Made by a program: the position numbers and the translations under genes. Of a stretch of 64,000 nt of DNA, positions 1-60,400 are shown in pieces (the stretch's first letter is position 1; every line of letters begins with the position of its first letter). The notes under the pieces are model-generated. The model worked only from the letters and a program-made list of their open reading frames with translations. It was not told the origin of the DNA and did no database searches. Location: contig NW_026963340.1 of the NCBI RefSeq assembly GCF_036588685.1, positions 496,001-560,000 of the forward strand, written 5' to 3'. Source of the stretch: Mytilus trossulus (Eukaryota).

Positions 1-1513
1 TACATTTTTAGATTGAAGCGCTTCTGTCAACGCCTACATTCCCAAATGCATTTGCAAAGCGAAACATTCAATTATCAAATGCAACCTTTTAATAACAAGC
101 AATTTATTAGATTATGCTTTGCATATTTTCCCAACATCTTACTGACACATAAATTGTAAAAAAAACTGACAAAATTTGAAGGTAGACTAGACGGATGTTT
201 TTTGTTTGTTTCACGCTAAAAAGGAAATTGGATCAGTGCTTAAAAATACGTATAGCTTTAATATTCCGAAGTAGAATAACTTCCGGGAATATGATTGACA
301 TACGTATAAAGGGATAACAAAATGTTATACTTAGTAGTAATGCTACACAATATAAGAGTACTCTGATAAATCGCCTATCAAATTGAATGTATTTTTTTTA
401 TCAAACGGATACTTCCCTTTCTAATATATAACCATAAGAAATTCGTATTTGGGTCTTCAATATTATGCAATTGTACGTTTCAATATAGCCCTGATGAAAC
501 AAATTAAAAAAAAATTGTTGATCTTAATACTAAAATACTTAAATAGACATATCTTATCAGAAGTTCTTGATTTTTTTTCTTCAATAAATGACAGTCACTT
601 TCTGCTTTGCTCATAATGTCAGAAAGTTCTTGATTATTTCTGGAGCTGTTTTAGATTGTTCCATAAATCTACGTTAATCACTTTGTTGTAGTATGGATAT
701 TAGACAAAAATGTTAGATGCTCAATTTTCAACATTTACAAATACGTCAATGTGCTTTTTATACATTTTTGAACTGAAATACACAAATTAATTTACCGGCA
801 TTTGATATGTTTGATGTCTTATCCTCAGACGAAACAACTATGTAATTTTTATCTTTTTAAGTCAATTACCGCATCATAAAGAAACCAATCAGAGTCTTAA
901 TGTGATAAGTAATTATTTTAAGATGGCATGTATGAAGACCGAATCTAATACACGACATGAGGGTTGTTGCCCACAAGGAAGCTATCAAACCAGAAGTCCA
1001 AATGGTGAAATTGAAATAATCCCTTTGTAAATTTTTACGGAAGCCTTCATGTGTATGTTGACCGTTTTTAATAAAATCCGTTTCACAGATAATTACGGAT
1101 ATGACCATACCAAATCTACTTGAATGTCGTTACTACAATCCCGTCCCCTATTCACGAATATGACCTACCAAATAAGACTTGTTACCGGGTTTGTACTAAC
1201 ATTATCACCACGACGTGTGCCACATGTGGAGCAAGATCTGCTAACCCTTCCGGAGCACCTGAGATCAATCCAAGTTGTTTGTTGGGTTCGTGTTGCTTAG
1301 TCTATATATTGTCTTTTGTGTACTAATATTTGTGTATTTGTCTTTTGCATTTTTTTTAATTTGAATGTCCCTATGTCATCTTTCGTACCTTTCTGGTGCT
1401 CCATGACTGTTATACAAAAGTACATAATTACCATACTATGGATTATGGAATGTATGAATGCCTCAAGTCAAATGTACACTAGTAGAGCATTGTCAAACCA
1501 AGCAGATACAACC

Positions 1514-1900: not shown

Positions 1901-2494
1901 TATGGTAAATCAATACAATCACTTACTGATTTCACAATTAGTTGTTGCAAGGGTCTTAATGAGTTTCAGTTTCTTCACCCAAGGCATCAAAATATACGTC
2001 CCCATTCTGACCGAACATAGATTCATTCGTGTACATATTGCACAACCGAACGTACGCCCTACCTTGGCGATGGTTTTACTGTCGGTCGGGAGATGACCAA
2101 AGGTGACTTCTTTTTAATTTCCTGAGTCCTTTGGGTGCAGGTAAGTATATTATTGTATTTTATAATCGGAAGATAAAGCAATGTGTTTTGCCTTCTGACT
2201 TGTAATCAAAACCATTCTTTCTAAGAGTTATAAGGCACATATGTTTGCCATTCTTCCTGTATGGAAGTGCATTCATTTTTTATTTATTTAAAGACAACAT
2301 TATTTATGTTACATACGAGAAATAAAGTTTACTGTTTCTACCTAAGTGATCCTGTGACATTACGATAAAAAAAAAAACAGATTCGAGGTCTGACGGTAAG
2401 CATTTTGTTATATGACAACAGTGTGAACTAATTTTATGTTCTCCTTCGCTTTGTTCAGCTAGTTGGAATTAATTTTGATAAATAGATATTGGTT

Positions 2495-22056: not shown

Positions 22057-23209
22057 ATGAAACGAAGGAATTATTTCTTAAATAATCACATGAGTGATAT
22101 TGTAAACACTGAAAACATATCTAAAGGTGTTGGACAACCAGTTCCTAATGAAGCTAACCAGACAAACCAGAATACAGAAAAACAACAACAAAACACAGAT
22201 AATATTTATTCATTTAATAAAGATAAAATGTATAATATAAATCAAAACTATGCTGTAATGGATAGACCTCAAATTCCAAGATTGACCAATTCCCATAACC
22301 ATTCACCCAAGTCTAGTAATGTAACCATGAAGCCACATTTGTAAGAGGGAGATGAAGATTTAAATGAATATTTAGCTCAATTTGAAATTTTAGCTGAAAT
22401 AAACGGTTGGAATTATGCAACCAAATCATTTTATTTGGCTGGTAGTTTAAAAGGGGGAGCAAGAGCTCTTTTAAATGAACTGGATAAAGAATATAGGAAA
22501 GACTTTAATAGCTAAGTAAAAGTTTTGGACAATATATATGGTTTAGCTGAGAAATCAGAACTTTTTAGTAGAAAACTCCAGACCCGTATGAGAGGTAAAG
22601 AAGAAAGTTTACATGAGTTGGCTCAGTCAATTAAGAAATTGACTAGACAAGCTTTTCCAAGTGCCCCATGCAAAATAACTGTTAGCACTAGAACATTTTA
22701 TAGATGCTTTACCAGATGCTGATCTGAGACTAAGACTTAGGGAATCTAACCCTAAATATATACATGAAGCAGAAACACTAGCTGTTAGGCTAGAGACGTT
22801 AAAGTTAGCAGAGAGACAAAACGGGAGGATGGTTAGACAGGAAGATCCAGTTCAGACTAAGCCTATATTTAATACAGAGTTAAATGATGACAAGGGGGAA
22901 GATTTAAAATCATTAAAAAATGAATTGAGTGATTTTAAAAGAGAACTGGTCTCTATCATGTCTATGTCAAGAAATATAAATGGTATGTCCCAAAACCAAA
23001 ATAGGAATAGCCAAGAGGGAGGTAACAAACAGAGGAACTATCAAAATGGTCCGAGAGGGTATAATAACCAGAATAAGAGCAACAGAAATTTTAACCAGAG
23101 AAGTAATAATTTTGGTCAGAATCAGAATAATTATTTTCAACAGGGAAACCAGTTGAGGTCGGACTCAAGAGTCGGAGCCAGGCCGGGACAGAATGGCCCA
23201 AGTCGATAA
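22057..23209 (+). pseudogene. gag: Decayed gag of Gypsy element B
   Basis: EGDEDLNEYLAQFEILAEINGWNYATKSFYLAGSLKGGAR, ESLHELAQSIKKL, N/Q-rich tail; stops and frameshifts. Confidence 0.8.
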
Positions 23210-26200
23210 AGATTAATGAATCTTTGGCAAATAATGACGGACTTTTTGTCAGAGCTAAAATTAATGATAAATGTTTAGTGTTTCTTGTGGATACTGGAGC
23301 CAATGTTTTTTTTTAACACTCTAATTGATTCTTTATTGCACATATTGCTGTTTAACAATTAAACTTGGTGTACAACATTTCATCAAGTTTCCCTGTTAGC
23401 TTACCAATAAATACCCAGGGATAACATTCAGTAAAATTAACTAATAAAATTAACTAATTAACTAATTAACTAATTAAATTCATTGGTTTTTTTATTAGTT
23501 GTTAATGGCTTTGAACTAGCTGTCAGATAACTGCGAGTACTCTCAGATCTGTTCATTGTGTCTTTTTGTGTCGGGATGTATAAGTACCTGGCCACGTTCA
23601 CTTTTTTTTGTCTATCTGATGAGTTAAGCCTTTTTCAACTGGTTTATATAGTTCGTTCTTATGTTGTACTGTTATACCACTGTCCCAGGTTAGGGGGAGG
23701 GTAGGGATCCCGCTAACATGTTAAACCCCGCCACATTATTTTTGTATGTGCCTTTCCCTAGTCAGGAGCCTGTAATTCAGTAGTTGTCGATTGTTTATGT
23801 GTTACATATTTGTTTTTCGTTAATTTTTTTTACATAAACAAAGCCGTTAGTTTTCTCGCTTGAATTGTTTAACATTGTCATATCGGGGCCTTTTATAGCT
23901 GACTATATGCGGTATTGGCTTTGCTCATTGTTGAAGGCCATACGGGGACCTATAATTGGTAATGTTTGTGTCATTTTGGTCTTTTATGGATAGTTGTCTC
24001 ATTGGCAATCATACCACATCTTCTTTTTTATATGATAAATTACATTGGTTTAATTCACACATTAAACTATTATTATAGTTGTTACAAATAGTCTTTGCTA
24101 CATCACAAAACATATTTTTAGATATATTCATAAAAAATATCTACACAATAATTGTTTTACGGAATTTGAACATTCATAGGAAAGACTTTTTGGTTTCTTT
24201 TATTATCTAATCAAAAACTGGAGCAAATGTTACTATTCTAAGTAAGAAATTAATTGATGAAATATATCCCTCATTACTTCCAAAAATGAATTCTGTAAAT
24301 ATTAATTTAATTACTGCTACTGGTGATTCAACACCATTTATAGGACAAATTGAATTTGAAATTTGTCTTTGAAATTATATTTATCACCACAATATGTTAG
24401 TTGCTGATATTTCCAATGAAGGTATCATTGGAATGGATTTTCTTGTGACTCATGACTGTGGTGTCTTGTTATGTCAAAATAAGTTGAAGATTAAAGGGGA
24501 GATAATTCAATGTTATCATTATGCAAGCAGTGCTAAATCTTGTTATAGAGTTGCTAAACAAGAGACAGTAGATGTGCCTCTAACTCAGAAATGATTGTTT
24601 CTAGGGAGTCAGATGAACCTATTTTTAGAGGTTTAGCTGGGTTGATAGAACCTAATGAGAAGTTTATGGAGAAAAATGGCTTATTGGTGGCAAATCAATT
24701 GTACATCCAGAGATGTATTATAATCCTTTTTTGGATAATGAATTTAAATAAAGAGCCCTGCACTTTATATAAAGGTACAATTATTGCTACTTGCAATAAA
24801 GAAGTTGAAGAAGATATTCAAACTTCTGAGTTTGTTAATAGTGTGGATGTTGGCCCAGCTATAGTAAATAAGGGGAGACAATTACCTGATTATTTACATG
24901 AGGTATTTGAGTCTTGTCAAGCTAATCTTGATAAAGATCAAAGTGAAAAATTTAGAGACCTTTTGAAATAATATAGTGACATATTCTCAAAGTCCTCTGA
25001 GGACATTGGTTTAACTGATTTAGTTGAACATACCATAAATACTGGAAATAACCCTCCAGTACGTCAGCGACCCAGACGAATACCCCTAGCTATAATGAAG
25101 GATGCTGAAGCTGAGATTCAGAAAATGGTTAAACAAGATATTATAGAACCTTCTACAAGTCACAGGAACTCCAATATTGTTTTCGTTAAGAAGTCAGATG
25201 GTAGTTGGCGATTCTGTATTAATTTTCGCGCCGTAAATTTATTGGTTTTACGTCCATCCTACCCCTTGTCACGTATATATACATGTAGATGACATAATTG
25301 ATTCCTTGTCAGGCTTCGAGTTCTTCTCAACCGTCGATTTAAAGTCGGGATATTATCAGATTCCAGTAGCCAAGGAGGATAGACCAAAATCAGCCTTTTC
25401 CTTTCCAGGGGGTGGTCTATGGTAGTTCAAGAGAATGCCAATGGGTCTATGTAATAGTGCCCCTGTTTTTGAGCAATTAATGGAAACAGTTTATCAGGTT
25501 TTACCTTGAATTGTTTTCAAAAAATCATTTGAGGAACATATGAAGAACTTGAAAGAAGTTTTTCAAAGATTAAAAGCAGCTAATTTAAAGCTGAATCCCA
25601 AGAAATGTAACTTTCTTAAGAAAGAAGTTAAATTTTTAGGTCACATTGTCAGCGAAAGTGGAGTAGCTTCTGACCCTAATAAAATTCAGTCAGTTAAGGA
25701 CTGGCCAGTGCCCAAGAGTATGAAAGATGTGAGAAGTTTTCTAGGATTAACATTCTATTATAGAAAATGTATTTAAAAATATGCTGATAAAGCAAAACTT
25801 TTATATAAGGTTACTGAGAAAATCCAAAAGTTTATATGGACAGAAGAATGTCAACAATCTTTTGATGAATTAAAGACTACTTTAATTAGTGCACCTTTTT
25901 TAGCCTACCCTACGAGGGAGAATTTATTATTTTGGATACTGACGCGAGTAATCTTGGTATGGGAGCAGTGCTATCCCAACTCCAGGATGGAGTTGAAAAA
26001 GTAATTTGTTACTTTAGTTAAACTTTCAGTAGATCTGAGAGAAAATATTGTGTTACCAGAAGAGAAATACTAGCTGTAGTAGCCTCTATTAAACATTTTC
26101 ACTATTATTTATATGATAAATACTTCAAGATTAGAAGTGACCATGGTGCATTAAGTTGGTTGTTTAATTTTAAGAATCCAGAAGGTCAGTTTACTCGTTG

Positions 26201-27990
26201 GTTCGAGGTTCTGGCATCGTATGGTTTAAAAATTGAGCACAGAGCGTGAAGGTCCAATAATAATGCGCCGCCCTACGAAGACGTCCTTGCTATAATAAAG
26301 AATGTCCTCACTGTGCTAGAGCAGAAATGATATATGAATTGGTTCCAACTCATAAAAACGTTTTAACGGTTGAAAAATGTAATGATTATGTCACTACTCG
26401 TGAATCTTGCAGAAATGTTCAAGTTGTTAGTGTCAAACAATCAGTTACAAAAACTAGTATTAGCTGTAAAAATTAAGATTGGCCAAACATGATAAGTGAC
26501 GGAACTTGCCAATAAGTAAAAAGTCATGTAATTCATAATGAAGTTAGAAGTAAGAGCCAGATATAAACCCTCATTTACTCCCTGTTCAGTCTAAGATAGT
26601 AAGAGTTGGTACCAGATCTAAGGATTATGGTTGCAGTCAAAATGAGAAGGACGACCCAGTAAAAGAGAAAATATTAAAAATATTTCAGAATCTCAATTAT
26701 CTGATGATGTAATCAGTTTAATTATCCAGTGGAAAATAGATGAAGTTAAACCCATATGGGCAGTAGCATCTCATATGAGTCCTGAAAATAAATGTTATTG
26801 TTCAAGATTAAATTCATTAATTCTTGTCAATGGAATTTTATATAGAAAGTCGGAAAGCTATAACGGAAAACATTATGATCTACATATTGTTCTTCCAGTT
26901 AATTTTAAAAGGTTCGTGTTGAACCAAGTACATAACACAGTGACCGGTGGTCATCTTAGGTGTAAGAAAAATTCTATCAAAAAATTAAACAGGGATATTT
27001 TTGGTATAAAAGGAGACAGGATGTTAAATTTTGGTGTACCAAATGTGATATTTGTGTGTCTAAGAAAGCACCTTGTAAAAACCTAAGGCCCCGATGAAGC
27101 AGTATCTTGTTTGTGCTCCTTGGGAAAGAATGGCTATTTACATTCTAGACCCTTTACCTATAAGTGTGAATAATAATCGCTATCTAATGGTAGTTCAGGA
27201 TTATTTTTCAAAATGGACGGAAGCTATATCAATTCCAGACACTGAAGCAGTGACAGTGGCTAAGAAATTTGTGGAAAGAATAGTAACCATGTTTAGGGTT
27301 CCTCTTTCAATCCACTCAGACCAAGGGTCTAATTTTGAATCTAATGTATTTAAAGAGATGTGTATCATTTTGGTATCCATAAAACCTGAACAACACCATT
27401 CCGACCAAAATCGGATGGTATGGTTGAAAAGTTAAATTCAACCATTGAGACAATGTTATCTGCTTTTGTAAGCAAACAAGAGAGGACTTGGGACGAATAT
27501 ATTTATTTATTAATGTTGGCCTATCGGTCATCAGAACATGAGAGTTTTGGGTACATCTCCATGTTCCATGTTATTTGGAAGAGAAATTAATCTTCCTGTA
27601 GAATTAATTCTGGGTAGACCAGAGACTGAAAAGTCACACTTATATTTAAAAACTATTTATGCATATGAATTATCCCAAAAATTAGAGGTAATTCATAAAT
27701 TTGCACGAAATAAATTAAAACTCAAGCGACACGATGAAAAGAAATTATGATGTTGGAACTAAGATGCAAACCTTTAATGTAGGAGATCCAGTGTGGTTGC
27801 ACAATCCTCGTCGTGTAAAAGGATTGTGTCCATAGTTGCAAAATAATTGGGAAGGCCCATATATTGTTGTAAATAAACTTAATGCTGTTATATATAGAAT
27901 ACAGACACGACCATAGATGACACCTAAGGTGGTGCACCAAGACAGGTTGGAGCCATATCTAGGAGAAGATGTTCCTGTTTGGTTTAAATA
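23200..27990 (+). pseudogene. pol: Decayed pol of Gypsy element B (PR-RT-RH-IN)
   Basis: Protease FLVDTGAN and IIGMDFL; RT WRFCINFR, VDLKSGYYQI, MPMGLCN (YxDD segment appears deleted near 25510); RNase H LDTDASN, YCVTRRE, SDHGAL; integrase HNTVTGGHL, DYFSKWTEA, IHSDQGSNFES. Confidence 0.92.
23308..24217 (-). mobile_element. Poly(A)-tailed non-LTR retrotransposon 3' fragment with ~15-bp TSD, itself interrupted by a SINE-like element (23490-24033)
   Basis: TSD actggagc(c/a)aatgtt on both sides; T-run plus tttatt at the left end; inner duplication taaatt(a)cattggttt at 23475 and 24036. Confidence 0.75.
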
Positions 27991-28282
27991 AAACACATGG
28001 AGGTTGCGGTACAGAAGATGTTGAACAGTCAACCTAGAACATTTGTTTGAAGAAATGAACATTGTGTTATATATTTATATGTGTGTTACCTAAATAATTG
28101 TATGTGAATACATGAGTTTTCGGTTAAATGTATATTGTAAGACAGTTGTTGTCCTATGAGTTATTGAATTTTGTTTTCAAGTTTTGAGCCAACCATGAAA
28201 TCAATTATTAGTGAATTAATTTAATAAATGTATATATAGTTTCTGTGCATTTTAGGACAAACGCCGAGTGGTTAGGGTGCTG

Positions 28283-29290
28283 TGTTACGATTTAGTGATC
28301 GTATTATTGAATTAATGGAACTCGTGTTTTCCATAGTTTACAGTCATGACAGTAGTAAACTGTTTTTGTTTACGTTTTCGCAACGCTATTCTTAAGATGG
28401 AATGTAACATCGTACAGATATTTCCGATTGATTGGCATGTGTTTTTATGATACTTGATGTGGTAATGTGTTTACCTAATAGGCTTATTTATTTTCTCATT
28501 GTAATTACTTGTGTTTTAGCCATAGTTCACCTAAATCCCCGCAGTGCCATAGTTTATTTACAAGAGAAGCCATATTTATTTGTGTATTGGCGGTCTGTGA
28601 CACGAGATTGCCTGTGAACATAACAAACGTTTTGATTGGTCGATCCATTGACCGTAAAATTATAAATAGAAGGTTGACGAAACGAACTTGAGAACTATTC
28701 TCAGATTTATTCTCACCGCCTGCAAGAGCAGTCGGAATTTAGCTGTCTTGATGTCCTTATAATTTAATGTGAAGTTTTTAATTGTTTTAAGAAAACTAAA
28801 CCTTCTTACACATGGCAATTTTCTGTTTTGAAGAAGAAGACGACCTTCGACCTACTGAAAAGTCCCGTCAGCTGTCGTTCCACTTAGTCAACTTTCTATA
28901 AATACAATATGAGAGAGGTTTTCTGGAAATCTACTTTCACTTTAGCAGAGAGAGAAACCGTTTAGACGATTACGGCATATTGTATATAAATATAAATGTA
29001 TATTTTTATGATCAATTGTAAATATTTAATTATATATATATGTTATGCATCAGGTGTCAGTTTCACAAAAAAACTTACGACTAAGATTGATCGTAAGTTA
29101 TACTGAATTGTTCATGACATACGATCAACTTTAGTCGTAAGTTTTTTTGTGAAATCAACAGCAACTTTATACCTGACTTAGTTATTATTTCAACCTGATA
29201 CCAACTCAGAGGATCCATGCAAATTATGTTCGATCGAGCCTCCTTATTCAATTTAACTTACCACTCGAGTTAAGGGGCGAAATCGTAACA
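28283..29290 (+). mobile_element. 3' LTR of Gypsy element B
   Basis: TGTTACGATTT...AAATCGTAACA perfect 11-bp terminal IR, downstream of B integrase, followed by ATAT. Confidence 0.8.
29061..29154. mobile_element. Small fold-back MITE inside LTR B
   Basis: tttcacaaaaaaacttacgactaa..ttgatcgta / tacgatcaa..ttagtcgtaagtttttttgtgaaa. Confidence 0.7.
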
Positions 29291-32200
29291 ATATAAACCC
29301 TTTATGTCTGATGGGTTTGTTTCTATTGTTGATGATACCAATCTTCCGCCTAAGATGTTACGGGACACTGGAGCTTCTCAGTCTTTATTGTAAGAAGGTG
29401 TGTTGTCTTTGTCCGAGAGAGACTTCTGTTGGTGCCTCCGTTTTGTAACAAGGTGTAGAGTAAGGTTGTACAGATGTTCCTCTACATCGTATATATCTGA
29501 AGTCAGATTTGATAACTGGACCAGTTGTTGTGGGTGTTCATCCTAGTCTCCCTGTTGAGGGTGTTACATTATTGCTAGGAAATGATCTAGCAAGGAACAA
29601 AGTGGTTGCTGAACCAATTGTTACCAGTGAATCGGTGGTGGATGTTAAATCACCTGAAGATGATGCTGAATTATATCCACCTTGTGTTGTTACTAGGGTG
29701 ATGGCTAGAAAACAACAAGATGAAAATTTGTAAAAAAAAAAGTTTGATTACATGGACCTTTCTGACACTTTCCTAGCTGACATTGAAGGTCCTTGTAGCT
29801 TAGAAAAGGCCATTAATAGACCACCTAGTGTCAACAAGAATGTTAATATGCCATGGCAAGACGTAAACAGCCATTCATTAGATTGAAATTATCTATTCAA
29901 AGAACAGCATAAAGACCCTAAGGTTCTTCAGCTTAGCCAGAGGGCTCAACCACAGGAGGAAGCAGACAAAGTGACCGAATGCTATTACCATCAGGACGGC
30001 ATTTTAATGAGAAAGTGGATGCCTCCTGATGCTACCCCAGAGGAGGAATGGAGAATGGTATACCAAGAAGTGGTGTCTAAAGTTCATAGGCAAGCAATTA
30101 TTGGTCTTGCCCATGACACCCCCTTGGCTGGACACTTAGGTATAAGAAAGACTGGCCTTAAGATATTGCAGCATTTCTACTGGCCCAGACTTCGAAATGA
30201 TGTCGCAAAATACTGAAAATCATGCCATATATGCCAGGTTGTTGGAAAGCCTAACCAGAAAATACCACCAGCACCAATTCTGGCTATTCCGACCTTTGAC
30301 GAACCTTTCAGCGGAGTTCTAATTGACTTCGTTGGACCTTTACCAAAGACCAAGACTGGAAATGCGTATTTATTGACAATCATGTGTACATCTACTCGCT
30401 TTCCTGCGGCTAGTCTGCTCAAAAATATCAAGACACCTACTATCGTCAGAGCTGCGATCAAATTGTACACGTTAGTAGGACTTCCGAAGTCCATACAATC
30501 CGACCAGGGATCAAACTTCATGTCAGGTTTATTTCAGCAAGTCGTGTACCAGTAAGGGATTGCTCAGTACAGATCAAGTGCTTACCATCCAGAATCTCAA
30601 GGTGCCTTAGAACGTTTTAGTCAAACATTGTAGAACATGATTAAAACTTTTTGTCTACAATTTGACAGATACTGGGATGATGGAGTTCGCTTTCTAATTT
30701 TTGCGGTCCAAGAGGCTGTTCAAGAATCCCTTGGATTTAGTCCCTTTGAGTTGGTCACATTGTAAGGGGATCGTTAACATTGATTAAGGAAAAATGGCTT
30801 ACTGAACATACTGACTTGAATCTTTTATACTATGTATCTAGATTTAAAGAAAAATTGTATACTGCTTGTCAAATTGCTATGAAAAACTTAACAAATGTAC
30901 AGAACAAGATGAAAATATGGTATGATAAAGATACCAGGAACAGGGTTTTTTTGCCAGGTGATAAGGTGCTTGTTTTTTTACCAGTCTTTGGACATCCTTT
31001 ACAGGTTGAATATTGTGGTCCTTATACAATAAAGAGCAAAATAATGATTTAAATTATATTGTAAAAACTCCAGGTCGGCGCAAACAAAATAGAGTGTGTC
31101 ACATTAATATGTTAAAACCATATTTTGAGCGTACTAATGAATGTGAGAGTAAACCAGTTGCCACTTTAGGCATGGTTAAATTTGAGAACAATCATGACAA
31201 ACCAGAAGTAATTAAAATACCTTTTAGTTGTAAAACTATGGACGATATCTTTAGATTGAAAAATTCGGAAATTTTGTCAAATTTAGATTCAAAACTTGCA
31301 CATCTGTCTTTTGATCGTAGAGAAGATATAAAAGCTTTGGTATTTACTTTTAAAAATCTTTTTCTAGATGTGCCAAACAAAACCACTGTTGTTTGTCATG
31401 ATGTTGATATAGGAGATGCTTCTCCAATTAAGCAATATCCTTACCAGCTGAAGCCACCCAAACTTGAAGTTATGAGAAAATAAATTAAATATATGCTTGA
31501 CGATGATATTATTGAGCCGAGTAACAGTGAATGGAGCTCTCCTTGTCTCCTTGTGCCAAAATCTGATTCTATCCGATTCCAAGGATAGATGATTGTATTG
31601 AGAACATTGGTTTAGCAAAATTTAAGAGCAAATTTGGTTTGTTGAAAAATTATTGGCAAGTTCCATTGGTACAAAGAGCTAGTGAAATATCAGCTTTTGT
31701 TACACCAGATGGCTTAATCTAATATACTGTAATGCTGTTTGGCATGAAAAGCGCACCAGCTACGTTTCAAAGAATGATCAATAATGTTATAAAAGATTTA
31801 GACTGTTGTTATGCTTATTTTTATAATCTTATTGCATGTAGTGATAGCTGGGAACATCATTTGACACATTTCGATGATACTTTTGATAGATTGTCACAAT
31901 CAAATTTGACTGTTAATCGTGGTAAAATTGAATTTTGTCAGGCCACTGTTGATTATTTAGGACATACAGTTGGTTAAGGTCAAGTGAAACCTATTATGAC
32001 TAAAGTTGAAGCCATTTTCAAATTTCCTTCTCCTACAAATTGAAAACAACTTATGAAATATTTAGGCATGATTGGATTTTACAGAAAGTTTTGTTCAAAT
32101 TTTGCTGCTGTGGTTCAACCATTGACTCATCTTTTACGAAAAGATTATAAATTTATATGGAGTGAAAATTGTCAAAACGCTTTTAAAGATAGCAAATCAC

Positions 32201-34049: not shown

Positions 34050-34479
34050 TATAACATAGATATGGGTATAAAAATTAGCATCTCATGTTGTCGTTTACCA
34101 TCTTTGCCGCAAATTCATTGTTTTCTACTTGGTATAAAATGAATATAGAGATCTATTCTATTACACCTTGTGATCAATTTATTTGGCAATCGTCAATGAC
34201 AGTCAACAGGGTTTAAGAAAATTAGTCATTCGACCTGTTAGTTAAATGCGTTTTGTTAAAAGATATTGTTTTCACTCTTTTTATCCTATGGAAAATGTTG
34301 TTTGTGCTGTATTAAGACCCCTCTACAATGAAATTTGTTACATGCTCACGTATGAAAATCGCAGTTTTTATCCAGCGCAATCATAGGTTTGAACGTTGTT
34401 ATAAATTTAGACTTGCATAAATATATACATATATATATATATATACAAAAAAAGTTTCTTTTCAAGCGGTGTACAGAAT

Positions 34480-35302: not shown

Positions 35303-37149
35303 ATATATATATATATATATAGTCAATGCGTTTTGTTAAAATTTACTTTTTCACTTTCTTGGTCTTTTGGAAAATGTTGTTTGTGCTGTATTTAGACCCT
35401 TCTACAACGAAATTTGTTTTACATGTACACCTTTAAAAATTTCGGTTTTTATCCAACGCAATCATAGGTTTGAATGTAGTTTTCAATTAAGACTTGTTTA
35501 TATTTTTTTCGTTTGGGTTTGTATGATATTTTCCCTCCGGTTTATATGATCCGTTCATCCTATATTGACTCTTGAAATTCAAGAGTCTATCTAAAAATAA
35601 GGATACATTTTATATGGCCTTCCAAATACCGTTTCGATCTCTAACATCACTGGAGAGACATTTATTGTCGAAATCCGGGTCTGGTGTACTAAAAAAGATA
35701 TTGACACCTTATGTTTGTTGCATAACATCGAGGCCACAAGTTAATTGTTTTCTGTTTAGTATTAAATTTATAGTAAGATCCATTTTGTTACATCTTGTGA
35801 TCAATTTTCTTTGGCAATCGCCAATGGCAGTCAGCAGGGTCAAAGAACATCAGTTCTTCAACCTGTTAGTCAGCGCAATCATAGGTTTGAACGTTGTTAT
35901 AAATTTAGACTTGCATATATACATATATATATATATATAAAGTCAATGCGTTTTGTTTAAATTTTACTTTTTCACTTTTTGGGGCTTTTGGAAAATATTG
36001 TTTGTGCTGTATAAAGACCCTTCTACAACGAAATTTGTTTTACATGCACACGTATACAAATTGCGGTTTTATCCAACGAAATCATAGGTTTGAACGTAGT
36101 TTTCAATTTAGACTTGTTCATATATATGTATGTATATACCACTCCTCTAAACATCAACCTAAGAATGTTAGATCTGTAAATTTGTTTTCACAATTTTTTG
36201 TTCTTCCCTCGCCCAGATTCGAACACATGCTACTGAGATATCGTGACACCCAATCGACTGCACTGCAGCCGTCCCTTTAAACCACACAACAACCTTGGCT
36301 TCTTATAAAAATGAAGCTTTCGATGGCCGGGTGTTACCTTTCCACGTCAGTTCTAATACTGATAAATAAAAAGTCCTTTGTACAGAAATTAAAGTTTAAA
36401 ATACAGAAACAATGTTTGATTTATGACACCACAATATAATTTTTTAAGATAATATTTTCCTTGCTTATCTCATTTCAACATCCAAAACTGGACCACTTTG
36501 GAACAATTACTTTTTAAATTCGAGCTCTTGATGTAAAGTTATAATCGTATTGACAAAACTGCACTTTAAATTCCCTGAAAACAATATCAGATCTACATTT
36601 CATGCTAATTCCGTGAACTAGTATAATTTTATGTTCCCAAATTAAAAAAAAAGTATATATCTGAAGGGAAACTTGGATATCAATAGAGCTTGCTAAACAA
36701 AATTAGCAACAAATTAAGAGAAATCTACAATAACACCGTCTGTGTTTCACTATGACTTAATGCAACTCAAATGATGTAAGAGAGGCTAAATTGAATGATA
36801 AAATACAAAACAAGAGGGTGTTGTTTTTTTCTACATTGTCTAGACCCTCAAAGGAAGGGTTGAGTTTTCACTCAACATGTTTACTCCACCACATTATTGC
36901 ACCTATTCCCAGTCAGCCTTTGTTTGTCTTTTTTTTTTATAATTTTGGTTCATTTGTATGTATAAGAGTTAAGGATGGTGTCAATTTCGCTGAAATAGTG
37001 TACAAAATAATTAAGGGGTCAGCTGAAGCCCAGTTCATTGTGTCAGATTTACTCGCTATGTTTTTTCTTTGACCCATTTCCTATTTCAGTTCTCTATTTA
37101 ACGTTTTAAAAATCAAACAAGAAATTACCAAGATTTTACAATTTTTATT

Positions 37150-37445: not shown

Positions 37446-38581
37446 TGTAATTAGTTCGTACAACTAAATGTTTCACACAACAAATAGATTATTAGTGATA
37501 CCGATAACAACAGGAATACATATGTATATAAACATAAGATAATATAGTCGGTCTACAAAGATCCTATGTAACACATGTGGAACAGGATCTGCTTTACCTT
37601 CCTGATCAACAGAGATCACCCCTAGTTTTTGGTGGGGTTCGTGTTGCTTATTCTTTAGTTTTCTAAGTTGTGTCGTGTGTACTAGTTTTTTATTAACCCC
37701 GCCGCATTTTTGCGCCTGTCCCAAGTCAAGAGCCTCTGGTCTTTGTTAGTCTTGTATTATTTTAATTTTAGTTTCTTGTGTACAATTTGGAAATTAACAT
37801 GGCGTTCATTATCAATTAACTAGCATATATTTGTTTAGGGGACAGCTGAAGGACGCCTCCGGGTGGTGGAATTTCTCGTTATATTGAAGACCTGCTGGTG
37901 ACCTTCTGCTGTTGTTTTTTTGCTATGGTCGGGTTGTTGTCTCTTTGATACATTCCCCACTTCCATTCTCAATTTTATTGTTGGCTGTTTGTATTTTTCA
38001 CTTTAAGCCATGACGTTGTCCCTCTGGTATCTTTCGTCCCTCTTTTACAATTTTTAACAAAAATTAACTAAGTTATTTATTTCCATTTTTCACAATTTTT
38101 CTCTTAACATCGCATTTTAACCAAGAATAACAATTTTAAAAAGTACGTAGGACTTCTTAAGATAAACATTGTTTTTTATTTTCTATTTAGATCCCAATTG
38201 CAAAGTTTTAACAATCAATAATCGAGATTTTTTCCCCCAGTTTATCTAGTTTCTCTCTCTTAGTCTGGCGTACTAAATTATAATCCTGGTACCTTTGATA
38301 ACTATTTACACCACTGGGTTGATGCCACTGCTGGTGGACGTTTCGTCCCCGAGTGTATCACCAGCCCAGTATTCAGCACTTTGGTGTTGACATGAATATC
38401 AATTATGTGGTCTTTTTAATAAATTTCCTGTATACAAAGCTTTGAATTAATCGAAAAACTAAGGATTTTCTTATTCCAGGAATAGATTACCCTAGCTGTA
38501 TTTGGCACAACTTTTTGGAATTTTGGATCCTCAATGCTCTTCAACTTTTAACTTGTTTACCCTTTAACTATTTTGATATGA

Positions 38582-38625
38582 GCGTCACTGATGAGACTTA
38601 TGTAGACGAAACGCGCGTCTGGCGT
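38582..38625 (+). ncRNA. Type I hammerhead ribozyme (predicted cleavage after GUC at 38619)
   Basis: gcguca CUGAUGA gac uuaugua gac GAAA cgcgcg UC uggcgu. Confidence 0.85.
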
Positions 38626-38935
38626 ACTAAATTATAATCCTGGTACCTTTGATAATTATTTACACCACTGGGTCGGTGCCACTGCTGGTGGACGTTTCGT
38701 CCCCGAGGGTATCACCAGCCCAGTAGTCAGCACTTCGGTGTTGACATAAATATCAATTATGTGGTCTTTTTAATAAATCTCCTGTATACAAAGCTTTGAA
38801 TTAATCGAAAAATTAAGGATTTTCTTATCCCAGGAATAGATTACCCTAGCCGTATTTGGCACAACTTTTTGGAATTTTGGATCCTCAATGCTCTTCAACT
38901 TTTTACTTGTTTGGCTTTATAACTATTCTATATGG

Positions 38936-38979
38936 GCGTCACTGATGAGACTTATGTAGACGAAACGCGCGTCTGGCGT
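38936..38979 (+). ncRNA. Type I hammerhead ribozyme (predicted cleavage after GUC at 38973)
   Basis: Identical to 38582-38625. Confidence 0.85.
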
Positions 38980-39622
38980 ACTAAATTATAATCCTTGTAC
39001 CTTTGATAACTATTAACACATGTATTCAACCAAAATTACCCAGATATGAATATTGATAATTAAAGGATTTCATAAAATATCATACAATAGTCGTTTTTCT
39101 ATATAGATCAAACTTTTAAAAAAAATATTAACATTAACAACGGAGGTTTTCTACGTTTCCAGTTTTCAGTGTTTTTTTTCTCACTAAAAATCACTCACCT
39201 CACCTCAAAATTACTTCAATATGAATAATAATAGTTAGAGGACGTCATAATAAATACACTGTTAAGATAAGGATTCCTGTCTACAACAAGCTTTAGGTCT
39301 AAAAAATATAACCGTAAATAACGCTTTTTTCTTCTACTCCAGTTGAGTGGTTTTAAAGATCAATTGACTAGGTTATTTTTCATAGATTTTGAATGGAAAA
39401 TAAGTGTCTATGTTAAATGTATAAACGACTAGAGGAAATTATTTCCAGCCAACTTTTCAATGGCTTATATCTCGAAAAAAAAACATCAATTGTTTTCATT
39501 TTTTTTTTTCGTTTCTTTATTTAAATACTATTGATTTATGACAGTATTTTTCAAAGCTTGTTATTTAAAAGCAGAGTAGCAAACAGCCTTAAAAGCAATT
39601 TATAATGGCATTTTCAGCTTAC

Positions 39623-39685: not shown

Positions 39686-42145
39686 CTACAGTGTTAGTTT
39701 AAAAATAATATAAAGAGATGAAATGAAATGTATTCATAGTAAGTAATTGAAGCAACAACAAACATTAAGACAATAAGTTCTTAAAATGCAGACACAATTG
39801 AATACTACGAATCAATAACATAGGAATATATCTTTAGGTTATATCCCTTGACCGAGTCAACAATCTCGTCAGCGGTTGCCTTTGTATCTTTTTTTTTTTC
39901 ATTATTAGGATTGAAATGTTAAATGCATGTTTTCTAATTTATATCGCTGTGTCTAGACATGAGATGATTTAACGCTCTAGGAAAAGAGGGACGAAAGATA
40001 CCAAAGGGACAGTCAAACTCGTAAATCTAAAACAAACTGACAACGCCATGGCTAAAAATGAACAAGACAAACTAGGAAGTTAAAAATACACATGTAGATT
40101 GTTGTCAATATATTGTTTCAAGATCTTACTTATAACTAGTCTAAAAATGTGAGAATATATTAAACAAACATTTTCAAAGAGTTGACAATTGTGATGGTAA
40201 TTGTTTTTATATTGTGTGTAGAAAAGAAGTTAAACTGTTGGAGAATTTCGGAATAATGATAGACTAATAAACACGGTCATTTTGATTTTAACAAGCCACT
40301 TTTTGTTTAAAACTTCGACGAAAGACAAGTAACCCAAACAAAACGTGTCATTAAAACAATCTTTTTTGATAAATGGCAACAGTACAATTATTTGAAGAGA
40401 AAAATATTCAAGCTGGAAAATAAAGGGAAAGATACCAAATGGAATCCCAAAGTTTAAAATGTAATGCCACCACCAAATAACAATACAAAAATCGAAATTT
40501 CATAAGACAAAAAAAAAGTTCCGACACACAACATAAAAACTTAAGATTGGGCACCGATTGTTATCTAACGTGTTTGTAAATGGCAAACAGATCCTGAGAC
40601 ACGTATTGCTGCTGATGGTAATTAAAAATCTGTGGTAAGTGTTATTCGATGATGTCACTTTCCCGGTTAAGACACTGGATGGTTAGTTACGACACTTGAA
40701 ATATATCATGGGTCTGTGGCATTATTTTCTGCAGGTTGGATGACATAGATGATTTCAACATAGTTCCTATACATTGAATTAATTTACATGAGTATACAGC
40801 TTCATATATGGCAATATGCTATATGGTTGGTTTCAATGAAATTTTGTTTGATGAAAGTAATTTGTACACTTTATGATGTGATTTACAGACTTAGTTTAGT
40901 TCTTGTTAAAGGAGGAAACAACTTGTCTCTTATTCATGTTTAAAAAGTATTTAAGTTTTATTAGAGTCTTTAAAAAAAAAGAAGTGTCACGAGTAAGTCT
41001 TTTTTCTGTCTGTTTAAAAAATAAATTGGTTTATTCATCAACCATGTAAAGAGTAAAATAACAAAATTACTTAGAAATTAACTTAAAGGAAAAATTTAAA
41101 ATGGAAAGTCTATTATCAAATAAAAAGTAAAAAGCCCAAACACATCAAACGAATGCAATCAATTGTCGCATTCGTGACCTGGTACAAACATTAAACTTTG
41201 TATAATATGGTGGCATAAACCTCGTTTTAAAGCTAGGTTGACCTCTCACTTGTACGACAGTCGCACAGAATAATCACACTCACTTCTCTTTCTAGAGCCT
41301 TATATATCTGTACATATAATCTTTACATTTAGCTTTGAAAAGAACTTAATTTGAAATCAAGATTAATTAACGGTAGAAGACATTCTGTTTGCTGGATTTA
41401 AATATATCGTCGTATAAATTAAAAGAAATAAAATACCCGTGGAAGTCTAAATTTCTCCGACCTTAATCCTGGACACCTCTATTACAGAACCTACCAATTG
41501 TTCTTATTGTGAATTTGTTCTCGTCCTCAATATGCATTAAATATTTGCAACTGGACAGGAAGTAGCCAGCAATCATTCAATCACTTGCACATTTGGAAAC
41601 TGTGAAACTAGTTATACTGAATTGTTAAAGTTTGATTTTTCAAATTAAATTGATTACAGCATTACTGAAGACATAAATTGTCAGAATACGCATTCAAATG
41701 AAATTGGTAGTGAAAATACTATCTAGAATAAAATTACATAAATAAGCTTGGCAGATAATTATTATGTAAAAAGAATTGCTTTTGAAAAATATTGGCAATG
41801 GAAAAGTACAAACGGCAACAAAGTGCATACCCTAACTTCAAGTGTCATGTCTTTTCTAAACTTTGTTTCTAATTTGTTCATTTCATAGCATTTGAATGTT
41901 GGTTTCAAGTCCAGCAATATATATTATCCAGATGCCTTATCTAAAATGTTTGTTTGTAGGATACGTCGAATTTATATAGTGTTGCGCCTTCGATCGAGAT
42001 AGATTGTTAGGACGCTTTCAACCAATTGTTTCGTTTTGGGCTTCGCTTTTATATTTATTACGCGCAACAACAAATATTTGCTAATGGTAAAAAATTATGT
42101 TGAGAGACACAATACTGTATAACACAAAACGATATATGTACGTAC

Positions 42146-42241: not shown

Positions 42242-44229
42242 CTAAATAAACAATGTAAATAACTAAAATACATTTTCATTATTACTTGAATCTTTTATAC
42301 AATCAAACTAATGTCTCGTTATATGTTATATCGCATACAATGAAATGAATTCAATAAATGAGTTCTTTTGAAACATCGTATCAATTTCATAGAATAATTA
42401 TATTTGGCAGAAAATACTGGGGTTCAAAACATGAAATGCTAAAGAAATATAGACTGCGAGTAAAAATCCGAAAGTGATATTTGACATCTAGTTAACATAT
42501 ATGTATAAATATTATTAGTAAGTACGTCTGAGTCAGTGACAACTCTTCAACAGATTAATCCGTCGAATCACCAGCAATGATGGTGATACATGGCTGTGTA
42601 CATAATGTATAGACAACTCGTCTAAACATCAACCCAACAATGTTAGATCTGTAAACTTGCGATCTAACATTGTTGGATTGATGTTTGTTGTATAAATACT
42701 ATTAGTTACACAGTGTGTTAGTGACCTAACAGACCTTTTCAACATCTGTCGACACCGACTAATAACACCTACAGTTTACAAGTAAAATGGAGGGGTAGTC
42801 TCAAAGTAAAATTAAAAACCCATCATAATTATCATAACGTATGTATATTCGATTTGGCTGTTATATACTGTATTGACTAAATAGTTACAGAAGATATACC
42901 AAACACAAATTAAATAAATATATTCCTCTATCATATAAAATTCTTATTAAATGTTTTAACACGACATTTCAAGTTTAATTGAGTAAAAAAACTATGCAAT
43001 CACTCCGCATTTTGATCATCTTTCTTTTCCATTGATAATAATTCGAGTCTGCCAAAGATTGTTCCGCATTACAATAACGATATAGAAAAATATGTATAAC
43101 AAGGCAGTTAAAGAATAACTAATCTGTTCATACGGGATTCTGTGTCGGGGGGAGGAGGCTCACGTTTTCTTTAAAAAAAAACCAACACACACAATTCTAA
43201 TCGCCAATTTGATAAAGAAGAAAAATTCTGGTCCGGCAGGTAACACATTTTTTTTCTACATGCAGATTTTTCTTTTCGAACGCATGATTCTTTTTAAATC
43301 TTATCTCTGACAATACAAAGGGAGTTTTTGTTTTATCCAATTAGACTAGTAAATTTCTGTCGCATGTTTTGTGCGCCTGAAACAAGTCTTGAATATGTCG
43401 GTAGTTTGTACGCCTTTTGCACAGTAGAAATTTAGGTTAATGATGTGATATTTTGACATTATGCTCAACGTATAAAAAGATAAAATGTGATTTAAAGCCT
43501 ATCATTTTCTACATACTAAATCAAAAACAACTACCTGTCATTTAGAATCTTTTTGAAAGTTGAACTATTGACAATAAAATAAATTTCAAGCAATAAAATC
43601 AGTATAGAGATCAATACTACTATTTTCATTTTCTTTTGAGACGACCCCGTACATCTTACCTGTCATAGTCGTTCTCCACTATATGTGTAGACAATTGTTG
43701 AAAATGTCTTTTACGATATACTGTATACAGGTCCAGTAAATTTCATATATAATTTACTAACCCCATATAGAATGAACTGACCCCATATAGAAGTTACTGA
43801 CCCCGTATATATCGTATTAGATCAATAGAACACTAAGGAAGGAATTATCTGACCGGTTATCTTTATTTGTTAAATCTATACTACACTTGACTCATTTGCA
43901 ATCATACCACATCATCTTATTTTTATATAAAAGTGCTCAAGAGTTTAATAACCTCTCCCATTGGTCTGCACGATAAAAACTAATGTTAACAATGACAATT
44001 TAATATCAACAACCTTGAAATAACAATAGTTAGCCGAACTTTCAACACACTTAAAAATTCAAATAGTGCCAAAGTCGTAATTCTACTACTTACCGTATAT
44101 TGAAATAAGCCCTGTCTCCCTACTAACTCATATGAAATAAACACGGTCTCCACGACGCTTTTAACAAATCATTTTGCTAGAAAATTAAGGGAGGTAAGCA
44201 TGGTAAGATAAACTATCTTATTAACTTAC

Positions 44230-45139: not shown

Positions 45140-45520
45140 TAAAAAGTTTGTACGTCAGACATGCGTTTCGTTAACGAAAATACCATCAGTGCCTCTCGAA
45201 TTAAAAACGTTTAAAAGGAATAGTAAGGTACATAGATAAAGAGCATTGATGACCGCACATTACGAAGGGGGTTTGAAATACTATAAGTTTCTGTTAATAT
45301 CAACTGATTTCTTGGCTGGTTATACTATCGGATGGACATCTCCATCATCAGTACTAGTGGCATCAATCCAGTGGTTGTTAATGAATTCATCATACAAACC
45401 AGGAGTCACATTTTGTACGCAAGACGGGCGTGTTTCTTCTACAAAAGAATATCAGTGACGCTCGAATAATTAAAGGTTAAAAAGGTCTAGAATGTACGAA
45501 GTCGAAAAGCATTGAGGTAA
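45140..45520 (-). mobile_element. Decayed retrozyme relic with two broken hammerheads
   Basis: Minus strand: CUGAUGG..GAAAcgcaugUCugacgu (~45151-45195) and gcgucaCUGAUAU..GAAAcacgcccgUCuugcgu (~45416-45461). Confidence 0.6.
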
Positions 45521-46097: not shown

Positions 46098-46228
46098 ATT
46101 CAGGTCTCAGACAGGGTATATACTGTGACATTCCCGGCTTAGGTCTTATATCCCCTTCGCCTTCGGCTCAGGGGATATAAACTCTAAGCCGGGAATGTCA
46201 CAGTATATACCCTGTCTGAGACCTGAAT
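46098..46228. mobile_element. Long terminal hairpin of a non-autonomous element (45-bp perfect arms)
   Basis: attcaggtctc...cccggcttag / ctaagccggg...gagacctgaat; inner ttatatcccct/aggggatataa; loop tcgccttcggctc. Confidence 0.8.
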
Positions 46229-56165: not shown

Positions 56166-56532
56166 GTAGAAAATAAAATTAACGGTACCAATTTTCTTGC
56201 ACCAGATGCGCATTTCGACAATACATGTCGATTCAGTGATGCTCGTGGCCAAAATATTTGAAATCCAAAGCTTATATAAAAGATGAAGAGCTATTATCCA
56301 AAAGGTCTAAAAAGATTAGCCAAATCCGTGAAAGGAATCAAAGCTTTGCATGAGGGAGATACATTCCTTAATTTATAATAATTTCTATCATTTTGTAACA
56401 GCAAATTTTGATAACACAAAAAAGCCATATTTTCATACCAGTACCGAAGTTCTGGCTACTGGGCTGGTGATACCCTCGGGGACTAATAGTCCACCAGCAG
56501 AGGCATCGACCCAGTGGTAGTAATAAAATTAA
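56166..56532 (-). mobile_element. Retrozyme of a second subfamily (~350-bp unit) with mutated hammerhead core
   Basis: gcauca CUGAAUC gacauguauuguc GAAA ugcgca UC uggugc (56199-56242). Shares the GC-rich domain with the 38263-39014 array; terminal redundancy aataaaattaa. Confidence 0.75.
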
Positions 56533-58535: not shown

Positions 58536-59271
58536 TTAAATCCGCTTTGTTTGGATTTTTCATCAAATTGGTCTGGGGACACAGTTATCGTCCTTTGAAT
58601 TTCGCTGTCTTCAAATAGAGTCCCTAGTGTAAAAAGTGTATAACGAATAACTTGCAATTTTTTTAATTCCAGCTTCCAAATTTTTATTTTTTTTTTATAT
58701 TTCATGAACAAAATAGTAAGCAGGGGAATAAATTAACATGTACAAAATTGGGACATACATTTTAAGTTAAAATAGTGATTTGGTTCAGTTTGAAAGGTCA
58801 CAAATTAAGTCTTAGTTCGATGACATTTTTTAACATACAGTTAGCCATGCCACCTTGCAGTTTCAATATGGCGGCTTTTTCAAAAATGGCTTCCCTAAAT
58901 TATCAAAATCAGCTTATTTCTCTTATATGAGGTCAGCTTGTAGGCAAAATTTAGAATGGCAGTAGTGCAGGTCGTTTGAAAAAAAAAGGGTTTGGACCAC
59001 CTAGCAATTTCATGATGTAGGTTTTTTCAAGCATAAAATTATCAATATTTTGAGTTAGAGCCGATACACTTTTCTATACTTTTGATATAATTTGTCCCAA
59101 AAGTAGTACATACACTACACTGTAAAAATCTTTTTTTGATATATCTCAGTTGCGATGTTTTTAATTTGCATTTTTGTCTTAAAGAAATGCACTAGGAAAT
59201 ATCACTATAATATGACCGTAGAAGGATTGTGGAATTATTGTTATGTCCTTTTTGGTCAAATAGGTTTCAAA

Positions 59272-60400
59272 AGGAGAACGAAAGATACCAAAGGAACAAT
59301 CAAACTCATAAATCGAAAATAAACTGACAACGCCATGGCTAAAAATTAAAAAGACAAACAGACAAACAATAGTACACATGACACAACATAGACAACCAAA
59401 GAATAAGCAACACGAACCCCACCAAAAACTATGGGATATTTCAGGTGTTCCGGAAGGGTAAGCAGATCCTGCTTCATATTTGGCACCCGTCGTGTTGCTT
59501 GTGTAATAACAAATCCAGTAAATAGTCAAATTCAGTAGGTCACATTTATGAAAGAGAAGGGGATTATAGTTACGATGTAAGTAACATATCCGATTTCATT
59601 TGTGAAACGGTTATGCAATAACGGTCAACCAACTCGTGATGACGTCCGTAAAATTTACGAAGGTATGATTTCAACTTCACCATTTGGAACTCTTGGTTTA
59701 ATAGCTTCTTTGTTGCAGCAACTCTCTATTCAGAAAATCAAGATATGAAATGCAAGTACGGGAATATCGTATTAACTGGGAGATATATACCTCGTATGCA
59801 GGTGCTGCTGAAATGTTGCTACTTAGGAATGGAAAGTTCACAAATGGAAAACTGACATCATCTCTTTTATCGTAAAGTTTTGCTTTCAATCGACCCTCAG
59901 TGTCAATTTCTATATGTAAGTCAATTTATGAGGCCGAATAAAATGTATCCGTAGTATCCTATATCTCGTTTTCGATGGGATAGATGCGTTCTACGTTTTG
60001 AATTATTTAGTGAAAGAACATCATCTATATAGCGCGAAGTAGAGTTACAGGATATCGCTAACTTCTTATCTGTCTTCCTGAGAAGTTCCTGTATGAAGTC
60101 AACCTCGTTATAATAAAAAAAATTAAGTTTGCAAGTAGATGGCATAATTTGTTCCCATTGGAATGCCGACAGTCTGTTAAAAACACGTCCTCCGAACGTA
60201 ACAAATATGTTGTTTATCAAGAAATAAAGCTTCTTGATAATTTTAGTTTCAGAGAATTTTTTGTTTGAATCAGAGGGATCCTTTACAAAGTAAGATTTAT
60301 CCCTCCCTAAGACAAGATACTGGTATCTACGTGGACTTTCTTTTTTATGAAACAAAGCAATACCAACTCTTTCAACTTGTCTTTCAGTTTGGTTTGGATA
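59272..60400 (-). pseudogene. 5'-truncated Penelope-like retroelement: RT C-terminal part plus 3' region
   Basis: GIPMGTN (frameshifted), RYIDDVLSLNN, KLYDKRDDVSFPFVNFPFLSSNISAAPAYEVYISQLIRYSRTC. The 3' region recurs at ~1120-1395, 4090-4480, 37570-37690 and 49990-50180. Confidence 0.75.

Follow-up and report, generated by a model that had tools for sequence, protein, structure and literature searches.

A structured RNA motif shared by mussel retrozymes and Naiad Penelope-like elements as a likely recruitment site and internal start for reverse transcription

A 64,000-nt stretch of the Mytilus trossulus genome (contig NW_026963340.1, positions 496,001 to 560,000; hereafter the window) carries hammerhead retrozymes with a second structured RNA motif of 62 nt, which three autonomous families of Naiad Penelope-like elements in the same genome also have in their 5' leaders. 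We consider it likely that this motif is a cis-acting site which recruits the Naiad reverse transcriptase (RT)/endonuclease, a predicted binding partner, and fixes an internal start of reverse transcription on circular RNA. RT recruitment was one of four functions suggested when the motif was originally predicted from the window sequence, and it is now strongly favored because the 3' ends of retrozyme insertions map six bases before the motif and autonomous Naiads carry the motif at that same place. Among the autonomous families, Naiad-2 is the most likely helper.

The sequence and position of the motif in the original prediction proved correct, and a further tandem copy lies in the same array (Table 1). 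The diverged minus-strand copy is real and keeps the motif together with the reported change of gacG..Cguc to gacU..Aguc, and the decayed version expected near 45312-45378 is likewise present. The motif is more than chance, since the 1.30-Gb assembly matches a 19-base core pattern exactly at 13,661 places and the reversed control at 0.

Table 1. Features of the window; positions count from its first nucleotide
Feature	Position	Strand	Remarks
Retrozyme array, subfamily A	38263..39019	+	2.1 units of 354 nt; stops where the third motif would start
Motif, first unit of the array	38311..38372	+	82.1 bits; one P2 pair broken
Type I hammerhead	38582..38625	+	RF00163, 24.9 bits (below gathering 34); predicted cut after 38619
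Motif, subfamily A, second unit of the array	38665..38726	+	Covariance model 92.3 bits (copy in training set)
P1 of this copy	38667-38673/38718-38724	+
P2 of this copy	38675-38680/38708-38713	+
Near-invariant core of this copy	38682-38689 (CUGCUGGU), 38703-38707 (CCGAG)	+
P3 of this copy	38690-38694/38698-38702	+
Retrozyme-only hairpin 3' of motif	38726..38748	+	By eye; A/B differences paired
Second type I hammerhead	38936..38979	+	Stem II change identical to that of the 38582..38625 copy
3' junction TTA, inferred RT start	39013..39015	+	Possible 3-nt duplication with TTA 38260-38262; a single 3-mer may be chance
Subfamily B retrozyme (L031)	56172..56532	-	1.03 units (361 nt); ends 5 nt short of next motif position
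Motif, subfamily B	56457..56518	-	96.3 bits (copy in training set)
Decayed subfamily C-like retrozyme	45151..45517	-	Holds decayed motif
Decayed motif	about 45305-45381	-	68% identity; covariance model 11.9 bits, E 0.98
3' end of Naiad-2 copy	38017..38047	+	Ends just before motif position in full-length tandems
Decayed 5'-truncated Naiad-2 copy	59269..60392	-	88% identity

DNA searches of the genome gathered 150 loci, which fall into three retrozyme subfamilies with units of 354 (A), 350 (B), and 362 nt (C). The motif is the best-conserved stretch of the unit, above the hammerhead: in an alignment of 122 of 177 units, which were cut at a 16-nt anchor inside the motif in a way that favors that part, A and B are identical in 59/63 columns of the motif, 34/47 of the hammerhead and 157/263 of the rest (Fisher p 3.5e-8). 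The corresponding figures for motif and rest are 55/63 and 151/263 between B and C, and 57/63 and 208/263 between A and C, where p is only 0.047. Together with the covarying helices P1 to P3 described below, this top conservation supports the idea of a selected RNA element other than the hammerhead.

Each tandem unit has a type I hammerhead, as in non-LTR retrozymes (units of about 170-400 nt), and the window copies have stem II or core mutations. The predicted cut lies 45 nt 5' of the motif in the second unit of the array, where stem II reads GACU, as against GUCU in most copies, and one pair is broken; the hammerhead of the subfamily B copy (56199-56242) has CUGAAUC for CUGAAGA in its core. 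The covariation originally noted in hammerhead stems I and III is confirmed and extends to stem II (GUCU/AGAC versus GACA/UGUC). An ATG stands 21-22 nt 3' of the retrozyme motif, after the retrozyme-only hairpin; in the window, it is ATG in the first unit and the remnant ATA in the second. The frames that follow such an ATG are 2-23 aa long and unrelated, and the arrays hold only chance frames. The retrozymes described from mussels are similar in having a type I hammerhead and expressed, frameless tandem units (350-390 nt, as compared with 350-362 nt here; Cervera and de la Pena 2020, PMC7229834). They self-cleave and accumulate mostly as circular RNA, and a cloned repeat is reported to cut at the hammerhead (PMC7229834). 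The available text of that study and of a review by de la Pena (PMC7761336) describes no second motif, insertion end, or named helper. In the portion of RNA-seq run X24 that was read (6%), the retrozyme unit is deeply covered, and first mates on the minus strand exceed those on the plus strand about 3-6 fold, which corresponds to sense (hammerhead-strand) RNA provided that the library follows the common stranded design; 553 reads run past the end of the unit back into its beginning, and either circles or tandem transcripts would fit. Long subfamily A arrays of 15 to about 50 units stand at G000:C1:113122-118102, 138081-143424, and 269562-287974, near one end of the largest contig, and at another locus two copies of a weaker hammerhead-like motif (L033:1298-1350 and 1983-2030, plus strand) flank a subfamily B retrozyme.

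A consensus of 13 natural copies (RNAalifold, with which single-sequence folding agrees) forms a long irregular hairpin that runs from P1 (7 bp) over a 1x4 loop to P2 (6 bp), the near-invariant core and P3, with the core CUGCUGGU facing CCGAG and predicted to be partly paired. Over P1, P2, and P3, 98.3% of cells are paired and 7 of 18 pairs are compensatory, which none of 500 shuffles reached, a count that is no probability, as the 13 sequences are related. The fold differs from the one first proposed, the inside of which was partly wrong. Its small hairpin does show the compensatory change of gacG..Cguc to gacU..Aguc, with GGAGA/UUUCC as the form in a third subfamily. For the inner helix gcuggug/caccagc, 0/7 pairs change on both sides and the paired fraction of cells is 85.7%, and the ccc-ga-ggg hairpin has 0/3 compensatory pairs and would need a 2-nt loop (in this region the alignment of the Naiad-1 row is off by 3 columns); neither is retained, nor is the unpaired bulge, the GAUGCC of which forms one strand of the covarying P2 (GAUGCC/GGUAUC). 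Variation among the retrozymes is almost confined to the small hairpin (GGACG/CGUCC, GGACU/AGUCC, GGAGA/UUUCC), and thus retrozymes alone are unable to settle the fold. The strongest support for the predicted P1/P2/P3 hairpin comes from published Naiad consensuses (File S5 of PMC8557442, the part viewed by eye), where the oyster has P1 ACCGAAC/GUUCGGU with P2 GUAUC/GAUAC, the acorn worm has P2 GAUAUG/CAUAUC, and Modiolus has P1 ACUACG/CGUAGU; the partner strand of the earlier fold varies freely among the motifs viewed there. Folding z-scores of the motif range from -2.6 to -4.9, and the antisense strand folds about equally, so folding energy does not discriminate between the strands. Metagenome retrozymes with different hammerheads (L253, L295, and L298) keep the motif at similar spacing.

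The insertion ends were mapped in hammerhead sense, using ends inside loci and fragments of at least 60 nt, with duplicates removed by flank. Of 178 distinct retrozyme 3' ends, 134 fall from -12 to +5 of the motif start, mostly at -6 to -3, where 8.5 would be expected; for loci found by queries lacking the motif, the same range takes 57 of 70. The remaining 44 of the 178 lie outside it, and two are at the hammerhead cut. The 5' ends are unclustered, with 7/178 near the motif start. Family-specific letters fade after -5/-4 in subfamilies A, B, and C alike. Among arrays with both ends (from loci centered on matches), 82/129 exceed one unit and 29/129 exceed two. A target-duplication signal is present (4.33 versus 3.95 +/- 0.08; 0/2000 shuffles), and 56 of 128 junction pairs share a word of at least 5 nt, compared with 30.7 in shuffled pairs. 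Such ends are those of target-primed reverse transcription with one fixed start and 5' truncation at random points. Lying 32-46 nt within the hammerhead-defined monomer, the start is internal. In Naiad-2, the element gives way to flanking DNA at -5/-4 in 31 distinct 3' flanks, a break matched by 475 reads of run X24 that diverge at the same place, and 27 of 64 matches among relatives of the Naiad-1 terminal repeat end at -15 to +5 of P1, with the mode at -7. Retrozymes, Naiad-1, and Naiad-2 are thus alike in leaving five to six bases before P1, despite differing upstream sequence. One 5'-truncated Naiad-2 copy (L059:1540-2810, minus strand) has inserted into a subfamily B motif, within the loop of P3, and shows a duplication of TTA.

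A GIY-YIG search and its follow-up yielded two autonomous families with Naiad diagnostics, Naiad-1 and Naiad-2, with proteins 55.5% identical. Their loci L181 and L201 hold a single frame with an N-terminal Zn finger, GIY-YIG, CxC, GxKF/Y, and DKA motifs and a C-terminal RT, the domain order and motifs known from Naiads (Craig et al. 2021, PMC8557442). The elements form partial tandems with periods of 3370 (Naiad-2) and 4277, in keeping with the 3.4-4.4 kb body of Naiads, and are heavily 5'-truncated. Naiad-2 has the motif directly after its terminal repeat (E 1.7e-17), ending 17 nt before the ATG of a frame of about 995-1000 aa, and 49-50 of 55 anchored positions are identical to the retrozyme motif. 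In Naiad-1 the motif is a compensated version, its outer helix altered and a hairpin inserted, a third family has a version of its own, and the 5' end of Naiad-1 matches published Mytilus consensuses (PMC8557442). Nothing detectable is shared between the retrozymes and these Naiads outside the stretch from motif to start codon, genome searches found no Naiad homologous to the remainder of the retrozyme unit, and no canonical hammerhead was found in L181 (core search) or in L201 500-1100 (Rfam). With the covariance model, both retrozymes and intact 5' junctions of Naiads, training copies among them, score as bearing the motif; 14 loci with frames of Penelope-like elements (PLEs) with a C-terminal endonuclease (Pfam GIY-YIG search), some of them 5'-truncated, show no motif at the elements. 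Naiad-2 is very abundant, with 18,704 first-look candidates, many of them identical, and coverage of its leader and frame start in run X24 is only 1-20.

Among published Naiads, 30 of the 54 5' ends in File S5 of PMC8557442 were viewed by eye, and 13 of these have a clear motif, 11 of them found by core search. The 13 come from three oysters, an ark clam, a pearl oyster, four mussels, three acorn-worm elements, and a toadfish. Three Acropora Naiads have a variant with an identical core, the motif is doubtful in three more (ctenophore, razor clam, crab), and it was not recognizable by eye in the other 11 of the 30. The available text of that study notes missing hammerheads and SECIS elements in Naiads, and there we found no mention of a 5' motif or a link to retrozymes. 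Further afield, viral contigs held no Naiad relative, and none of 5 pattern matches there passed the pairing and composition filter; a pattern scan of metagenomes gave at least 120 loci, most of them chance matches, with 6 AT-rich loci bearing the motif among the matches listed.

Other conserved structures were seen in the Naiads. The Naiad-1 terminal repeat (L181:6650-6760 and L159:770-890, both plus strand) has a twister-like motif, probably permuted, that scores 18.5 bits (E 0.22) and 20.1 bits (E 0.031) with RF03160 (twister-P1), far below the threshold of 67.2; a fragment related to the repeat lies in the window at 41046-41265 (minus strand), and similar letters close the published Modiolus and razor-clam Naiads in the part of the published set viewed. 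As a lead from sequence likeness, this motif might stand in for the missing hammerhead and supply the circle. The 3' UTR of Naiad-2 and Naiad-3 contains a conserved multi-helix element (L202:3255-3355, plus strand) about 150-240 nt 5' of the motif; it has no Rfam match, copies lie in the window near 1200-1300 (plus) and 59400-59500 (minus), and relatives occur at the 3' ends of oyster Naiads among the published sequences viewed. A second hairpin in the first Naiad codons (L202:3590-3625, plus strand) consists of a short stem of the CUGG/CCAG type that encloses a conserved GUCGC, and in many cases a TATA-like stretch follows it; it seems, by eye, to covary in the published Naiads viewed and is absent from retrozymes.

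We propose that the hammerheads would cut out the retrozyme monomer and a host ligase would close the circle, on which the Naiad protein would bind the motif. Its GIY-YIG domain would nick AT-rich DNA (TT/TTA), and the nicked DNA would prime on the U-rich bases directly 5' of the motif, about six bases from the first helix. The RT would then travel round the circle away from the motif, which would be copied last in each round, until it falls off at random. The usual Naiad insertion has a single motif, 5' of the frame, and hence copying of the frame would need circular or multimeric RNA; we infer such circles for Naiads as well. The motif stands 6-21 nt before the Naiad start codon and may also serve translation there. 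It is possible, though doubtful, that the motif is a portable 62-nt RT origin, by which the Naiad protein could copy and insert any circle that bears it, that Naiads circularize themselves through other ribozymes (twister-like in Naiad-1), and that the helix anchors the template in a manner analogous to telomerase RNA. A 548-nt hammerhead repeat without the motif stops elsewhere, in (TA)n, and is probably served by a different helper. This tandem family (window 34099-34413 and 35320-36123, plus strand; L188, L192, L194, and L195) has a ribozyme resembling that of subfamily B, with 8/12 3' ends at one phase, AT-rich or (TA)n, and is often found near PLEs with a C-terminal endonuclease.

Cleavage would fix 3' ends just as recruitment would, and the motif could act as a novel self-cleaving ribozyme, or as a signal for a nuclease, with the cut falling about six bases to its 5' side and RT starting from the new 3' end and jumping between linear monomers. 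The near-invariant unpaired core between covarying helices would suit such a role, as would the lack of canonical hammerheads in Naiads (PMC8557442). However, the spacing of hammerhead and motif is as constant as that of control intervals (39/46 modal in B) with no jumping scars, a single cut per Naiad transcript is unable to make its 3' end, no Rfam ribozyme matches, and the mostly circular retrozyme RNA and the hammerhead cleavage of the cloned mussel repeat (PMC7229834) also speak against it. Run X24, a fragmented library and hence a weak witness, has no pile-up of read ends at the motif or the hammerhead. We regard this explanation, and with it the unknown ribozyme of the original prediction, as unlikely; the ligation signal suggested there is also disfavored. 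Quite improbable, too, is a translation-initiation element of uncapped Naiad RNA that retrozymes would have inherited from their parent. The short distances to an ATG in Naiad-2 and in retrozymes, given above, would be explained by it, but the motif is the best-conserved part of retrozymes with tiny, unrelated frames, and the insertion ends would be left unexplained, so that translation might at most be a second role.

As for an internal DNA promoter, GGGTCGATGCC in the retrozymes resembles the Pol III B-box consensus. A Pol II promoter at the boundary of repeat and body is the other form this explanation could take, and in Penelope and Chlamys an internal promoter is located there (PMC8557442). 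Yet the B-box-like letters change together with the bases opposite them and have disappeared from oyster Naiads, the G-U pairs and double changes indicate RNA, five runs of 4-5 T per unit would stop Pol III, and a promoter doesn't fix 3' ends; the promoter reading is therefore very unlikely. We think it equally improbable that the motif owes its high identity among retrozymes to a recent module swap with Naiad-2 and not to selection in retrozymes. The near identity of the two motifs and the retrozyme and Naiad-2 pieces lying side by side in several loci would fit a swap, but the P3 pairs differ and are still intact in A, B, and C, the three metagenome retrozymes with other hammerheads keep the fold, and all share one end. 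Least probable of all is a DNA site recognized by the endonuclease, so that copies would home beside existing ones. The endonucleases of PLEs can cut at the junction of their own repeats in vitro (PMC11167929) and one Naiad-2 copy lies in a retrozyme P3 loop, but the latter is a single event at a TTA, and arrays end in unrelated flanks with no motif downstream.

The motif was also compared with known RNA classes. Scanning the window, the motif, and the Naiad-2 leader against Rfam 15 gave no matching family for it, the best overlap being RF04247 in antisense (17.1 bits versus gathering 41, E 0.71). HDV-like ribozymes are marked by a nested double pseudoknot, P1.1, and a catalytic C in J4/2. The covarying helices here are nested, and the single pseudoknot candidate, which joins P2 with the inner helix of the earlier fold, is possible in retrozymes, but that helix lacks covariation. 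By-eye fits to an HDV-like, a twister and a hammerhead fold failed, antisense CUGGUGA..GAAA being present in subfamily A only. SECIS elements have an AUGA/GA core and an apical AA; by eye, such a core is absent on both strands, and the motif sits in a 5' leader, not a 3' UTR. A Pol III type 2 promoter would have conserved A and B boxes and no internal T runs, but the box-like letters are not kept in Naiads.

Helper-recognition signals and internal initiation are already known kinds of signal. SINE tails shared with partner LINEs show how a non-autonomous element keeps the RT-recognition RNA of its helper. That signal, however, lies 5' of the start at the RNA's 3' end, whereas the motif lies 3' of the start, derives from the 5' leader of the helper, and implies a circular or multimeric template. 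Hepadnaviral epsilon is a structured RT-binding element beside the template. Telomerase RNA likewise has one by its template, with a pseudoknot downstream of the template, and the RTs of PLEs are sister to TERT (PMC4993307). The likeness to both is an analogy only, as the motif has no conserved pseudoknot, no short reiterated template, and no sequence or Rfam similarity to them. A further parallel is Poseidon, a PLE of Anolis, whose RT begins copying at an internal site of its RNA, for which it requires RNA lying 3' of that site, and has a preference for ATT targets (Frangieh et al. 2024, PMC11167929). An internal start downstream of the hammerhead and an AT-rich target are what we propose here, and the 3' ends of the insertions mapped above do have a fixed place within the RNA, on the downstream side of the ribozyme. 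The motif is placed where a Poseidon-like binding site would be and is kept above all else in retrozymes, which leads us to RT recruitment.

A 2020 review considered that animal retrozymes have no conserved motif revealing an autonomous element that mobilizes them (PMC7761336). A recent preprint regards animal retrozymes as non-autonomous derivatives of PLEs (Li, Clavereau and Pollet 2026, 10.64898/2026.07.22.740005); it is centered on vertebrates and on terminal-repeat similarity, and the part available presents no RNA motif, end mapping, or Naiad partner. In the openly available literature searched, neither the motif nor a link between Naiads and retrozymes is described, although Figures S4-S6 in the supplement of PMC7229834 (mussel sequences and folds) might mark the motif region. 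What appears to be new is the RNA family, its position 3' of the start, and the fact that a hammerhead circle and a hammerhead-less Naiad have it in common. The motif would name a candidate helper, of which many copies are intact, and predict the start site to the base, and it points to hammerhead-less Naiads, whereas the shared hammerhead had suggested other PLEs. As a compact RNA family kept in the published Naiads viewed, from bivalves to acorn worms and a fish, it would also allow direct tests of how a TERT-related RT recognizes its template, for which a single protein and an RNA of 70 nt would do.

Other mobile-element remains in the window include broken frames like those of a Gypsy-type retrotransposon, with gag/pol-like pieces (about 22600-31500, plus strand; by eye). 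Near-perfect inverted repeats at 29056-29159, 42622-42688, and 46113-46213 have weak microRNA-precursor scores and are probably transposon ends.
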